64,000 bases of DNA from Eledone cirrhosa (lineage: Eukaryota), in assembly GCA_964016885.1 (NCBI GenBank), contig OZ024740.1:362824001-362888000 (forward strand), given 5' to 3'. The notes beneath the pieces are model-generated. The model was not told the origin of the DNA. It saw only the letters and a program-made list of their open reading frames with translations, and did no database searches. Of this stretch, positions 7,531 through 60,996 are shown in pieces. Position 1 is the first letter of the stretch. Every line of letters starts with the position of its first letter. Position numbers and translations under genes: made by a program.

Positions 7531-8191
7531 ACAAAGATCGGAATTAAGAGTATTCCGCAGTTCACTGTAATAATAATAATAATAGTATTAGCTCAAAGAA
7601 GAATAGAGAATTTCCTTCTGAGCTCAAATGCAAGTATATATTACACAAAGAGAAGTGTGTTACACAGTGAGATGTGTGTAAAGAATTATTACAAGTGATT
7701 TTACCGTTACTGTATAGGGAACAATATCTACAGGTTAGCAATTAAATAGAAAATAAACCAATTCAGAATCAAATCTCTGGATTAGAGTTTTAAATCACAA
7801 ACCTTATAACTATATTTTGCTGATACGAATCTAGCTTCGTTTCACCACTTATATGTGCAGTATCAGTTCACAAGGATCCTCAGTCAGCAAATGCGAACAC
7901 TGAACACTACACATCTAACCTCATGGATAGAGAGATGTCAAATAGACACGCTGGCCAGAGTAGGTCGAAAACAAGTGGTGAAACGAAGCTAGATTCGTAT
8001 CAGCAAACTATAGTTATAAGGTTTGTGATTTAAAACTCTAATCCCGAGATTTGATTCTGAATTGTTTTTTTTTCTATTTAATTGGTAACCTGTAGATATT
8101 GTTCCCTATACAGTAACGGTAAAATCACTTGTAATAATTCTTTAGACACATCTCACTGTGTAACACACTTCTCTTTGTGTAATATATACTT
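7531..8191 (-). mobile_element. Non-coding PLE-type element with ~220 bp inverted arms, (TA)n-flanked
   Basis: 7632-7850 is the reverse complement of 7973-8191; carries an HHR; TA tracts on both sides. Confidence 0.75.
7816..7891 (-). ncRNA. Type I hammerhead ribozyme (GUA site)
   Basis: Minus strand: tttgctga CTGAGGA t[stem II]t GAAA cgaa gctaga ttcg TA tcagcaaa; 8-bp stem I, 5-bp stem III. Confidence 0.8.
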
Positions 8192-8270
8192 ATATATATA
8201 TATATATATATATATATATATATATATATATATATATATATATATATATATATATATATATATATATATA

Positions 8271-8857
8271 TGTACCAGTTGCTTTCACTTCAATTTATTA
8301 CATATTTATAAATTTATAAATTTACAAATCTACAAACTTATAAATTTCTGGTTGGTTGGCTGGTTCCACAACCAGATAGTTGTTTATATATAGTCATAGT
8401 CCTTTCGTCACACACTCTCTGACCTCTTCAGTGACTGGGGATTCCTTTCTTTGTTTCTGTGCCTTTCCTTTCTTCTATCCTACGCCATTTTGTTTCTGTG
8501 TGTGTGTTGTATGCTCAGTTTGCGCATGCGCCACATCCGGGTGTCTGTGTGTGTTTGTGTTCATTTATCTATTTGTTTATTTATTTATTTATTTGCAACA
8601 TGACCCTCCCAAAGTATAACAATATCGGTTTCAACACACGATTTCAGATAAAGAATCTTGCTAAACAAATTCAGAAACGAAATATATATATATATATATA
8701 TATATATATATATATTTCGTTTCTGAATTTGTTTAGCAAGATTCTTTATCTGAAATCGTGTGTTGAAACCGATATTGTTATACTTTGGGAGGGTCATGTT
8801 GCCAATAAATAAATAAATAAACAAATAGATAAATGAACACAAACACACACAGACACA
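8271..8857 (-). mobile_element. HHR-bearing element ending in a ~315 bp palindrome centred on a (TA)n tract
   Basis: 8542-8681 and ~8716-8857 are near-perfect reverse complements; HHR at 8392-8436. Confidence 0.65.
8392..8436 (-). ncRNA. Minimal type I hammerhead ribozyme (CUA site)
   Basis: Minus strand: agtca CTGAAGA g gtca gagagtgtg tgac GAAA ggac TA tgact. Confidence 0.72.
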
Positions 8858-8859
8858 TA

Positions 8860-8980
8860 TAGAACATCGGCTAGAATGCTTTGCAGTATTCGTTTCCGCT
8901 CACTGCTGTCCGAGTTCAAAACCTGCTGAGGTCAATTTACCTTTCATAAAAAACTACCAGTCTATCTAGTACTGGGGTGG
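8860..8980 (+). mobile_element. Diverged SINE fragment (same family as 16391-16580)
   Basis: B-box-like gagttcaaaacc followed by tgaggtcaatttacctttcat. Confidence 0.55.
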
Positions 8981-9199
8981 GATCTTCCTCTATGTCTCTT
9001 TCTCATATCCATTTTCTTCCTTTCTATCCTTCTCTGGTAGAAATGTGCTGTATTCAGACCTGGAGATGGGATCCGCCATGTTTTAAAACAACGCCATAGA
9101 AACGCCGTATGTCAATACGGCGCCCCTACGACACCCACACGAGTTATGAGACCATATGTATATGTGTGTGTTACTATGTGAATATGTATATGAATGTGT

Positions 9200-9482
9200 A
9201 TGTGTGCACGTTTATATATATCATACACAAAACGCCAGCATCAACCGTTTTCCAAGAGATGGCAACATGAATGGACCTGTTATTTTTCTCTAAAAACTTT
9301 TTTTCCGATTCCGCCCTGCCCGTCCCTTCAATCTTTCTAATTTCTCATTCTTTCTTCTGATGAAAGACTAGCGTCTGAATCATTAGCATCCTCTTCCTGC
9401 TATTTCAAGCGTTAAACTATATTCCTTCCATATATACCGTGCCGTTCGTTTTGTTATTTCTGTTTAATTTTTATGTACGTAC
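9200..9482 (+). mobile_element. Decayed PLE 3' terminal region with degenerate HHR
   Basis: CTGATGA a agac tagc gtct GAAT at ~9358-9381 after a pyrimidine-rich tract; GAAA and stem III are damaged. Confidence 0.45.
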
Positions 9483-57731: not shown

Positions 57732-57832
57732 ATTTTAATAAATATTTGCTCTACGGTTCTTATATATTTGATATATATTTATCCTTATCGAGGCCTCTTT
57801 GGATTTTAGTCTTCAAATTTATTTTTATTACT
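57732..57832 (+). mobile_element. Naiad terminal tail fragment
   Basis: Reverse complement of 51052-51153; shorter pieces at ~12411-12452 and ~39780-39822. Confidence 0.7.
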
Positions 57833-57977
57833 ATATATATATATATATATATATATATATAAATATACATACATATACACACTCACACACACACACACAC
57901 ACACACACATATATATATATATATATATATATATATATATATATATATATATATATATATATATATATATATATATA

Positions 57978-58086
57978 TAGGAAGGGCATCCAACTGTAGA
58001 AAACCTGCCAGATAGTCCTATGCGAGCAAGAAAATCACTCTACCCCCGTCCAAACCCATGCAAGCGTGGAACACGGACGTTAAACG
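57978..58086 (+). mobile_element. SINE/LINE 3' tail fragment
   Basis: aggaagggcatccaactgtagaaa..aacccatgcaagcgtggaacacggacgttaaacg, recognised from memory as a common octopus retroposon tail. Confidence 0.5.
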
Positions 58087-59341
58087 TTGAAACTAGTACA
58101 TCGTTCCTGTGTCAGTGTTGAACAAAAAGGTGACGTGGTTGCCTTAACACCGTATGGCATAAATTCAGGCTGTTCAGTTTGTTTACAAACGAACAAAGCG
58201 ACGTTATAATAAGCGCCGCTAAACTGATACGTGCATATATGTATGTGTACCTGTATGCATATGTATGTGTATATATATATATATATATGTGCATGCTACT
58301 GTACGTCTGTATACATATATGTATGTACGTATACATGCATACTTACATTTAAGTAAGTGCCATACTAAGAGTGAGAAATGAAATTTCGTTTTCATTTTGT
58401 TTCAATTTATCGTTTTCGGTATGCCTGACCGATTTAACTCACTCAATATGCAAATTAGGCTGCTCAGCCGTTAATTTTCATAAGGAAAGTATATACTTTC
58501 GAACGTTCAACTATCTGGCAGATGGGTAAACGGTGCTGATGATAGCTAACAAGCTTGAAACTAGTACATCGTTCCTGTGTCAGTGTTGAACAAAAAGGTG
58601 ACGTGGTTGCCTTAACACCGTATGGCATAAATTCAGGCTGTTCAGTTTGTTTACAAACGAACAAAGCGACGTTATAATAAGCGCCGCTAAACTGATACGT
58701 GCATATATGTATGTGTACCTGTATGCATATGTATGTGTATATATATATATATATATATGTGCATGCTACTGTACGTCTGTATACATATATGTATGTACGT
58801 ATACATGCATACTTACATTTAAGTAAGTGCCATACTAAGAGTGAGAAATGAAATTTCGTTTTCAATTTTGTTTCAATTTATCGTTTTCGGTATGCCTGAC
58901 CGATTTAACTCACTCAATATGCAAATTAGGCTGCTCAGCCGTTAATTTTCATAAGGAAAGTATATACTTTCGAACGTTCAACTATCTGGCAGATGGGTAA
59001 ACGGTGCTGATGATAGCTAACAAGCTTGAAACTAGTACATCGTTCCTGTGTCAGTGTTGAACAAAAAGGTGACGTGGTTGCCTTAACACCGTATGGCATA
59101 AATTCAGGCTGTTCAGTTTGTTTACAAACGAACAAAGCGACGTTATAATAAGCGCCGCTAAACTGATACGTGCATATATGTATGTGTACCTGTATGCATA
59201 TGTATGTGTATATATATATATATATATGTGCATGCTACTGTACGTCTGTATACATATATGTATGTACGTATACATGCATACTTACATTTAAGTAAGTGCC
59301 ATACTAAGAGTGAGAAATGAAATTTCGTTTTCATTTTGTTT
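58087..59341 (+). repeat. Tandem array of a ~470 bp HHR-containing unit (~2.7 copies), retrozyme-like
   Basis: gaaactagtacatcg at 58089, 58557, 59028 (periods 468, 471). Confidence 0.93.
58529..58573 (+). ncRNA. Minimal type I hammerhead ribozyme (GUA site); second copy 59000-59044
   Basis: aacggtg CTGATGA t agct aaca agct t GAAA ctag TA catcgtt; 7-bp stem I, palindromic ACTAGT stem III. Confidence 0.88.
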
Positions 59342-59629
59342 CTATATATATATATATATATATATATATATATATGTGTGTGTGTGTGTGTGTGTGTGTA
59401 CGTGTACATGTGCGTATGTGTACGTGTACATGTGCGTATGTGTGTGTATGTGTGTGTATGTGTATATTTTTAAATACATACATACATATACACACATACA
59501 CATACATAAAGTTGCATCACCACATATATATAAAAAAACACATACACACAAACACACACACACACACATATATATATATATATATATATATATATATATA
59601 TATATATATATATATATATACACACACAA

Positions 59630-60996
59630 TGATATTAAATAAATGGAAACTATATTTATAAAACCATATTTATTTTATTATATATATTTCATGGGTACCA
59701 AGACATTGGTACGCTTTCATCAAATAAAATACAAAGTTGGTTTTATAAATCGAGACAAACCCATGAAAATCATACCTTATCGGTTGGATATTCACTGGAT
59801 AGTGGAAATATGTTAGGTACTTTTCAAACTTATGTGTGAATATGCAAATGAATATGTAAATGATTGAAAAACAACCGTTTATTTAAACGACTATGGAGAG
59901 AGAGAGAGAGAAGAGAGAAGAGGAGAAGGATAAAATAGTGCGAGAGAGAGAGAAGAAAGAAACAAGAGAAGATGAATAAAAACTCATATAACGTTAATTT
60001 GAGGGAAATATATTTTAAGTATATATCTTAATAGTACGTGTATTTACGATTATTAGTTGTTTAATATTTGTTTATAATATAACATTTTTCTTCCGTTATA
60101 AGTAGATAAATAAATAAATAAATACATAAATAAATAAATAAATACATAAATAAATAAATAAATAAATAGATGGGTATATCATGTTATAGATAATTGTTCT
60201 AAGTTATGAGGGATATTGGTTTTTGTAAAATTTTTCAATATTTTTTCAATAATTTTTCAATATTTTTTCAATACTTTATCAATATTTTTTCAATATTTTT
60301 CAATAGATTTATAACCACCAACTGATTCTGGCTAAATGTATCTTTCAACATCTATACTTATTTTGACTAAAGAGTCTCACACTAACGAATAAATAAATTA
60401 AACCGGAGTTTTTTTTCCATATCTTCCCATTTTAAATCATATAAATATAAATATTCTTATTAACTCAGTTAATTTAATTTAACTTAATATTTATTTACAT
60501 TAAATACAAAACCAATATCTCTCATAACTTATTAGAACAATTATCTATAACATGATATACGCATCTATTTATTTATTTATTTATTTATCTACTTATAACG
60601 GAAGAAAAATATTATATTATAAACAAATTTTAAACAACTAATAATCGTAAATACACGTACTATTAAGAATAGTACTTAGAATACTATTAAGAATAGTACT
60701 TAGAATATATTTCCCTCAAATTAACGTTATATGAATTTTTATTCATCTGCTCTTGTTTCTTTCTTTTCTCTCTCTCGCACTATTTTATCCTTCTGCTCTT
60801 ATCTCTTCTCTCTCTCTCTCCATAGTAGTTTAAATAAACGGTTGTTTTTCAATTATTTACATATTCATTTGCATATATACACATAAGTTTGAAAAATCCC
60901 TAATATATTTCCACTATCCAGTGAATATCCAACCGATAAGGTATGATTTTCATGGGTACGTCTCTATTTATAAAACAAACTTTGTATTTTATCTGA
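59630..60996. mobile_element. Non-coding element with ~500 bp inverted arms, related to the 39262 family
   Basis: ~59719-60222 is the reverse complement of ~60508-60996 (diverged); 59630-59750 is homologous to 39353-39482. Confidence 0.78.

Follow-up and report, generated by a model that had tools for sequence, protein, structure and literature searches.

The stretch analysed here (the window) comprises 64 kb of the Eledone cirrhosa genome (contig OZ024740.1, positions 362,824,001 to 362,888,000; 32% GC, in a 3.0-Gb genome) and contains 29 hammerhead ribozyme (HHR) motifs in 12 repeat families, designated here by F numbers. The insertions of these families stop at two fixed 3′ points. In Penelope-like elements (PLEs) of the Hydra clade, as well as in three of the four tandem units without an open reading frame (ORF), these points are followed by a bulged hairpin, hereafter the box (box 1 and box 2). 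What is new in this work is that a twin hairpin runs through the clade and recurs in ORF-less units; the hammerhead system itself is of a known kind at an unusual scale. The box is probably a docking or positioning mark for the reverse transcriptase (RT): two boxes would give two starts of synthesis, the HHR located just upstream would survive truncation, and the boxed ORF-less units would be copied in trans.

A Bulged Hairpin beyond the Insertion Ends

The box, ~20–45 nt in total, opens with RYUC and closes with GARY; between them are a variable helix with its loop and a bulge of 2 nt (UU, UC or UA). It begins 2–8 nt beyond 16 of the 16 ends mapped in F1, F2, F4, F5, F30, F7, F11, F14 and F29 (11 recognized by the descriptor and five by eye with one relaxed rule), and follows none of the seven ends of F3, F6, F15 and F9. 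No shared fold was evident past the ends of the Neptune-type families. A CAC(A/C/U)CG hexamer, noticed by eye ~8–25 nt past most ends of the box-less F3, F6, F15 and F9 (loci L449, L344, L015 and L157), may be the Neptune-type counterpart of the box and may tie F9 to Neptune-type elements.

In other species, the box was sought in a metagenome set of 77 loci of related proteins. In 42 of these, the sequence spans the start of the ORF with 138 nt or more on its upstream side. At least one box was found in 35 of these 42 Hydra-type loci and two in 21 (shuffles, 3.7 and 0.16, respectively; inside the ORF, 4 of 42). After the removal of near-duplicates, 31 of 37 families retained a box and 19 retained two. 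The box is kept across Hydra-type elements of ~40% protein identity. The published Hydra-1_Ajap consensus begins 2 nt before box 1 and carries two boxes, and the entries preceding Hydra-1_Obim and Hydra-1_Crog in the same consensus file end with box 1 (PMC8557442 supplement). The twin hairpin is, therefore, present in sequences already published, and no description of it was found in the literature text searched, including the passages and supplement text of Craig et al. ("hairpin" and "stem-loop" gave 0 matches), although figures and further supplements could mention it.

The upper helix of the box covaries. When the box is anchored by sequence only, the first pair of the upper helix is formed in 50 of 51 instances (C-G in 32 and U-A in 17), against a mean of 39.4 and a maximum of 45 in 5,000 shuffles. 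For the second pair the figure is 32 of 46 (shuffled, 18.5), and for the third pair it is 24 of 29 (shuffled, 11.9), both above all 5,000 partner shuffles, and G-U pairs are included. Kinship among the loci and the difference between box 1 and box 2 add to this signal. A pairing figure of 41/41 was set aside, since it came from 41 of 45 instances in 26 loci that had been selected after the boxes were seen; all 42 loci (reduced to 37) were used instead.

In other species both boxes are located 30–140 nt upstream of the ORF start, which would also agree with a hairpin acting as DNA or in expression, that is, as an endonuclease (EN) site of the pseudo-long terminal repeat (pLTR), a promoter or a translation signal, brought near the ends through crowding before the ATG. 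The lower four pairs of the box, which hardly vary in other species, are in line with such a role, as is the Penelope element of D. virilis, whose "tail" is needed for the recognition of DNA by the EN (cited in PMC11167929). On the contrary, both boxes persist in ORF-less units, the covariation of the upper helix includes G-U pairs, and the spacing of the box is tight to the ends (2–8 nt) but loose to the ATG and the HHR (tens of bases). This explanation is consequently considered unlikely, and a mark read at the ends of the element is preferred.

Two Fixed Ends and Inverted Insertions

Every well-sampled family stops at two fixed 3′ points, ~60–165 nt apart, hereafter the short and the long end. 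Diverging (inverted) pairs amounted to 82, with 61 classifiable and 21 unclassifiable. A short end was joined with a long one in 55 of the 61 classifiable insertions (50% expected, p=2.6e-11). In the published text consulted, a PLE tail is present at one end only (PMC8557442), and for a Poseidon PLE this tail has been traced to two internal RT start sites, with a protein dimer predicted (Frangieh et al., PMC11167929).

The junctions share TAT or ATAT microhomology with the target, and on this basis we infer that synthesis is primed by short base pairing. Each of the ORF-less families has its own two fixed 3′ ends, so a PLE insertion signature is borne by non-coding elements as well, in agreement with the earlier note, and this indicates copying by a PLE enzyme.

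The 5′ ends are not in excess at the cleavage site: 8 of 507 lie at offset 0, mostly indel artefacts, in a sample biased towards whole ribozymes. Cleaved RNA as the template is, therefore, unsupported. Both this result and the hammerhead core of F2 agree with a ribozyme that insertion does not require. In detail, the F2 hammerhead (window positions 18912, 51209 and 56277) has an A at core position 4 (A4) and a CUU triplet. The A4 core was found in 65 of 66 sampled F2 copies and in none of the 62 metagenome hammerhead motifs.

Autonomous Elements

An F2 copy of the window contains a frame (52143–54131, minus strand) with an RT followed by a GIY-YIG endonuclease at the C-terminus (YRDD at 346, YIG at 598), and the motifs DKT, CNCRNRADC (CxCx5C linker), RLRWR, CDLC and CKH. 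By motifs alone, the element belongs to the Hydra clade, which is characterized by a C-terminal GIY-YIG, DKT, CxCx5C, RW[K/R], CxxC and CxH (Craig et al. 2021, PMC8557442). The (TA)n targets, the HHR in the pLTR and the inverted copies with a tail at one end are further likenesses in the parts of that source consulted. Differences from it are the many families and very high copy number here, against few families there, the tails of ~60–165 nt instead of 30–40 nt, and the A4 core of F2.

The earlier note had named a Naiad as the autonomous element, an identity that was rejected in favor of the Hydra clade. According to the same source, Naiads have an N-terminal EN and a DKA motif and are reported without canonical HHRs, whereas the main element here (F2) has a C-terminal EN, DKT, the CxCx5C linker, RxRW and HHRs, and F6 has DKG. 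The Pfam scan gave no match to the Hydra ORF. A Foldseek search with the F2 protein model had telomerase reverse transcriptase (TERT) as its best match, confirming a TERT-like RT only, with no bearing on RNA binding by RxRW.

Full F2 copies elsewhere in the genome have an open frame of 713 codons in a 3.26-kb unit, and F30 has one of 844 codons in a unit of ~4.9 kb with a canonical core; the published Hydra norm is <3 kb with a canonical HHR. EN identity is at least 98% in all of the best 150 scored matches, which suggests recent activity of the Hydra-type element. Two other organisms have sequence closely similar to the F2 element, with many pieces at least 95% identical; close relatives or a recent spread are suggested as the cause.

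Some copies of F1, F2, F5, F19 and F30 have a Hydra-type ORF 1–2.5 kb upstream of their HHR, with the link of F1 made at the family level only. F6 and F15 are the ends of Neptune-type elements, both with an overlapping upstream ORF1. The F15 unit is 4.2 kb, and F6 is classed by its motifs (DKG, the Cx4CxxC linker CGRSNCGTC, YIG and YLDD). F3 belongs to another ORF with a C-terminal EN. Eight of the 12 families are 5′-truncated 3′ ends of ORF-bearing PLE families and not parasites. The non-coding parasites postulated by the earlier note are confined to the other four, that is, F7, F9, F14 and F29, whereas the PLE type of the hammerheads stands. Summed depth in the contigs of four sequencing runs (type unspecified) drops steeply from the ribozyme to the 5′ part of the ORF, which is consistent with 5′ truncation but is not a copy number.

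ORF-less Tandem Units

F7, F9, F14 and F29 are closed head-to-tail tandem units of 422–571 bp (GC 35–38%) with one type-I HHR each, which recur with a fixed period at many dispersed genomic loci. Their longest ATG frames have 27–56 codons, no match to PLE proteins was obtained by tblastn, and their predicted circular folds are stable (3.9 to 9 standard deviations below shuffles).

These units look like non-LTR (non-long terminal repeat) retrozymes (PMC7229834; bioRxiv 10.64898/2026.07.22.740005), which in the texts consulted are likewise ORF-less tandem units of low GC, with one type-I HHR each, a self-paired circular fold and a presumed PLE helper. Unlike them, the units studied here are inserted into (TA)n in inverted form and with the two ends typical of PLEs, and they have a specific cis motif in common with one PLE clade. 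A 2020 review, in the part covered, states that animal retrozymes show no conserved motif revealing their helper (PMC7761336). The preprint of Li et al. (bioRxiv 10.64898/2026.07.22.740005) argues for a PLE origin of retrozymes from co-occurrence and pLTR homology; no such homology was found here.

All families, the four ORF-less ones included, could alternatively be pieces of truncated or deleted autonomous PLEs, with arrays grown by local DNA duplication. Parents with ORFs do exist for the eight families mentioned above, Cervera and de la Pena (2014) held most solitary minimal HHRs to be truncated PLEs (PMC4209133), and the inspection covered ~30 loci per family with 1.5-kb flanks. The dispersed recurrence of the four as closed units of fixed period, their short frames, the lack of a tblastn match to PLE proteins, their stable predicted folds and their own pairs of insertion ends argue otherwise and make this origin quite improbable for them. 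The proposal of the earlier note, in which one or two autonomous Naiad or Neptune elements mobilize about a dozen non-coding parasites, draws on the four ORF-less families and on the non-coding state of most copies of every family, but with eight families having ORFs of their own and a Naiad-type ORF linked to none of the HHR families of the window, it is largely refuted by the ORF-linked copies and retains hardly any probability.

Proposed Mechanism and Its Relation to Known Systems

The mobilization by means of the twin hairpin would proceed as follows. A tandem copy would be transcribed through the pLTR. The RT-EN protein would bind box 1 and box 2 (GCUC-helix-UY-GAGC) and nick the (TA)n tract, and each nicked strand would pair with a 3–5-nt stretch of AU immediately 5′ of a box, priming cDNA at that point. 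The two cDNAs, usually cut short, would then be joined head to head, leaving one short and one tailed end. With a start of synthesis located 20–300 nt downstream of the ribozyme, the hammerhead would be kept even in very short copies, which would explain the hundreds of thousands of solitary motifs. In the ORF-less F7, F14, F29 and F11 (the last outside the window), the presence of the same two boxes would allow mobilization in trans, and F9, without boxes at its ends, would use another PLE. Since stem III is palindromic, ribozyme cleavage would likely take place in dimers; it would serve to process multimers or to form circles, and may be dispensable for insertion.

The Hydra RT is the likely helper of the boxed ORF-less units, judging from the shared box. 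No BLAST homology of these units to the autonomous references was found, so it is the box alone that points to this helper. The ORF-bearing parents, located at a consistent distance upstream of the HHR, favor the mechanism. Several observations weigh against it. The parent of the F1 subfamily of the window was not traced continuously into an ORF, and F1 has a degenerate box at its long end in the single full copy seen; the corresponding box of F4 was not seen. F9, the largest family counted (25,666 exact matches), has a box-like hairpin 4 nt past the cleavage site and not at its ends. Among the 37 metagenome families, six have no box by the descriptor. The ORF-less units lack BLAST homology to the nine autonomous references of this genome and to the 77 metagenome loci, save for low-complexity matches of F11. 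The thresholds that separate short from long ends were taken from the same data as the 55/61 test. Finally, the Poseidon PLE started in vitro at sites without target homology (PMC11167929), unlike the microhomology seen here.

A more tentative proposal, somewhat short of an even chance, concerns the reading of the box. By analogy with the trans-activation response (TAR) element, a protein dimer might sit on the twin TAR-like bulges, with each bulge read by arginines of the N-terminal RxRW helix and each subunit priming on one nicked (TA)n strand; this would explain both the PLE tail and the inverted insertions that combine a short with a long end. RxRW is invariant and is located in a predicted N-terminal helix. 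In the box, a bulged U follows a paired purine and precedes a G-A-G/C-U-C stem, as in the arginine sandwich of TAR and 7SK (PMC6189040, as far as consulted), where the pyrimidine bulge also starts with U and a U.A-U triple is possible. The resemblance holds at the level of secondary structure only, and the loop of the box is on the opposite side (circular permutation).

Among the systems described, the Anolis Poseidon PLE (PMC11167929) is similar in its two internal RT starts that define the tail, its AT-rich targets and an insertion for which HHR cleavage is unnecessary. [quoted passage not shown] The minimal type-I hammerheads of PLEs (PMC4209133, in part) resemble those found here in their many heterogeneous families per genome, mostly solitary, with pairs on opposite strands 100–700 bp apart, and in the U3-A8 variant, the palindromic stem III and the unpaired base at the foot of stem II. 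In contrast, the motifs found here often have 1x1 mismatches and long inserts in stem II, and the numbers per genome are ~2,000–9,000 there against an estimated 300,000–400,000 here, by different descriptors.

It is already known that PLEs carry hammerheads and that Hydra elements target TA. The choice of two internal start sites by PLEs and the mobilizer of animal retrozymes are both posed as open questions in the literature consulted, and a hairpin that marks both starts and is common to ORF-less units makes the two testable with a few point mutants in an in vitro assay that already exists. If the reading of the box by a protein dimer is true, any RNA with both hairpins would be written into TA microsatellites, hammerhead retrozymes included. 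The twin hairpin would then account for a genome that ranks among the richest in ribozymes on record, and would offer a portable two-hairpin tag for site-directed RNA-to-DNA insertion.

Insertion into TA Microsatellites

A (TA)5+ tract was found within 200 nt 3′ of the cleavage site in 128 of 162 usable matches and within 200 nt 5′ of it in 45 of 162, compared with a mean of 33 of 162 at random positions. These counts are somewhat inflated by TA runs internal to F6 and F9. In the evenly spaced genome stretches alone (see below), a TA tract is located 3′ in 80 of 95 cases and 5′ in 28 of 95. The first microsatellite on the 3′ side was TA in 83, CA in one and GA in one of 97 motifs, and absent in 12; in the background, TA tracts exceed CA tracts ~5-fold and GA tracts ~10-fold. 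TA microsatellites are, as the earlier note held, the target, and the enrichment of their flanks is borne out. The flanking is directional, with the tracts mainly 3′ of the ribozyme. A TA-rich run is present inside every F9 unit (window positions 58087–59342 and 40170–40561), and for this reason F9 units may seed new (TA)n targets.

Hammerhead Motifs in the Window and in the Genome

A strict type-I descriptor (stems I–III, an NUH triplet and a core that is either C[U/A]GANGA or its U3-A8 variant) recovered 23 motifs in the window, whereas local dinucleotide shuffles (60 in total) contained 0.3 on average and 2 at most, and the reversed sequence contained none. With family-specific patterns, all 29 motifs of the earlier note were located, in 12 families as it had approximately counted. 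The remaining six are degraded copies within the same families (15972–16000, 59679–59723 and four copies of F6 in which stem I is weakened), so that the type-I features (CUGANGA/GAAA core, three stems and NUH triplet) are strictly present in 23 of 29. The core of F6 is the U3-A8 variant. The repeat families were delimited by masked self-BLAST, as microsatellites swamp plain repeat finding, and the 12 cover 25.6 kb of the window. The Rfam scan showed no hammerhead among the 150 of 261 matches listed, only miRNA artefacts of TA repeats.

Both structural traits pointed out earlier, that is, the palindromic stem III and the irregular foot of stem II, are confirmed in the evenly spaced genome stretches. 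A short palindromic or near-palindromic stem III is found in 76 of 97 motifs, the first pair of stem II is mismatched in 38 of 97 and a base is inserted there in 17 of 97. Covariation was tested in one family, F7: in 19 distinct sequences, 96% of cells are paired and 45 cells are changed on both sides (shuffled, 14.2; reached in 0 of 500 shuffles). The number of covarying pairs (eight vs. 6.6 shuffled) was not significant. A second helix within stem II of F7, not required by the descriptor, likewise covaries. Stem II inserts of 90–110 nt occur at 32755–32865 of the window and at L043:4462, one of them consisting of hairpin sequence resembling a TA/CA microsatellite.

The hammerheads are a genome-wide and not a window-specific feature, since their density is 360 per Mb in the window, 220 per Mb in the 200 kb of flanks (24 and 20 motifs in the two 100-kb flanks) and ~126 per Mb genome-wide. 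With roughly three times the density of the genome, the window is, thus, a dense sample of a load borne by the genome as a whole. In detail, 77 evenly spaced 10-kb stretches (769.8 kb) contained 102 motifs, compared with ~4.6 in eight shuffles. The bootstrap range of 93–164 around 126 per Mb corresponds to ~280,000–490,000 hammerheads per genome. The number of motifs per stretch climbs with TA content (Spearman 0.50). A loose core pattern matched 268,321 times on one strand of the whole genome, against 74,285 in a like-for-like backwards control; counts on the reverse strand were left out, as overlapping starts inflate them. The spaced stretches reproduce the loose total, with 137 matches (~60 in shuffles) extrapolating to 533,000 on both strands, which leaves an excess of ~300,000–390,000 over the shuffles. 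The hammerhead load of the genome is estimated at ~300,000–400,000.

Exact family patterns matched 12,089 times for F7, 11,539 for F6, 5,648 for F15, 1,262 for F30, 608 for F14 and 31 for F29, next to the F9 total given above, with 0 in controls. A 2-Mb sample, which is biased, yielded 68 hammerhead sequence clusters. A further abundant HHR family (loci L084, L129, L167, L174 and others), with a long stem III and box 1, is absent from the window and has 82 matches in 2 Mb. Nearly all of its copies end inside stem II, and the descriptor counts are, therefore, underestimates.

Other descriptors have been used in published work, which counted 126,247 hammerheads in axolotl, >6,000 in Acropora and ~5,000 in Mytilus (PMC7229834, in part). 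The load estimated here exceeds that of axolotl, the highest printed count found, with the reservation that the descriptors differ.

Organization of the Window

Hydra-type families occupy several regions. The F2 inverted pair (51053–56342) consists of a minus copy with the long end, a box (51093–51137), an HHR (51169–51209) and the RT and GIY-YIG frame described above, and a plus copy (54250–56342) with an HHR (56277–56317) and the short end. Another F2 copy, 5′-truncated and with the short end, is located at 17041–18977 (plus; HHR 18912–18952, A at core position 4). F30 is represented by a 5′-truncated 3′ region at 14047–15837 (minus; HHR 14093–14130), F19 by a 3′ end at 32713–33811 that reaches the end of the family ORF (minus; the HHR at 32755–32865 has the 90-nt stem II insert), and F5 by a 3′ end at 49231–50201 (HHR 50109–50163, plus, short end), which includes an inverted tail with a box (49288–49312, minus). 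F1 forms two inverted pairs. The one, at 39263–39694, has the long end on the left and the short end on the right (HHRs 39401–39450, minus, and 39596–39645, plus; box 39326–39344, minus), and the second, at 59626–60995, has a degraded HHR (59679–59723, minus). Tail fragments of F1 and F2 without an HHR are found at 57548–57831 (box 57618–57636, minus).

Among the Neptune-type families, F15 has inverted fragments at 15852–17007 (degraded HHR 15972–16000, minus). An F6 element at 18989–23115 (plus), with its frame broken in this copy, shows DKG, YLDD and Cx4CxxC (HHR 22945–22974, U3-A8). F6 3′ fragments, both on the plus strand and with a degraded HHR, are positioned at 27980–28093 (HHR 28013–28042) and 41224–41856 (HHR 41754–41783). 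Three F6 3′ ends lie within 45313–46071 (HHRs 45338–45367, plus; 45835–45864, minus; 45901–45930, plus). The 3′ end of F3, whose family ORF has the C-terminal EN and a Cx4CxxC linker, is at 8274–8594 (minus; HHR 8397–8431).

With respect to the ORF-less families, F29 (549-bp tandem unit) forms an inverted insertion at 7532–8190 with both ends in (TA)n (HHR 7824–7883, minus; box 7591–7623, minus), and F14 (485-bp unit) one at 27233–27949 (HHRs 27292–27362, minus, and 27790–27860, plus). The F7 array at 28947–32407 (minus) contains six units of ~566 bp with HHRs from 29148–29219 to 31992–32063, box 1 (e.g., 29032–29055) and, after the long end, box 2 (e.g., 29480–29504); an F7 tail fragment at 42044–42151 (plus) retains box 1 (42074–42097) without an HHR. 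F9 is present as a single unit at 40170–40561 (plus; HHR 40405–40435) and as an array of 2.7 units of 471 bp at 58087–59342 (plus; HHRs 58536–58566 and 59007–59037).

The window also contains long interspersed nuclear element (LINE) copies with an APE endonuclease and an RT (Pfam Exo_endo_phos_2 and RVT_1) at 2078–6420 (plus), 24382–27235 (plus) and 34398–37987 (minus). The first two are 93% identical, and the copy at 24382–27235 is cut at the F14 insertion. A repeat at 46172–48984 between TA tracts has direct duplications (46172–46664 and 48480–48958) and no hammerhead by the descriptor. Finally, the F3 tail forms a perfect palindrome on either side of a TA run at 8541–8856. This palindrome, the top false miRNA match among the Rfam matches listed, consists of two F3 3′ ends facing each other, apparently in one microsatellite.

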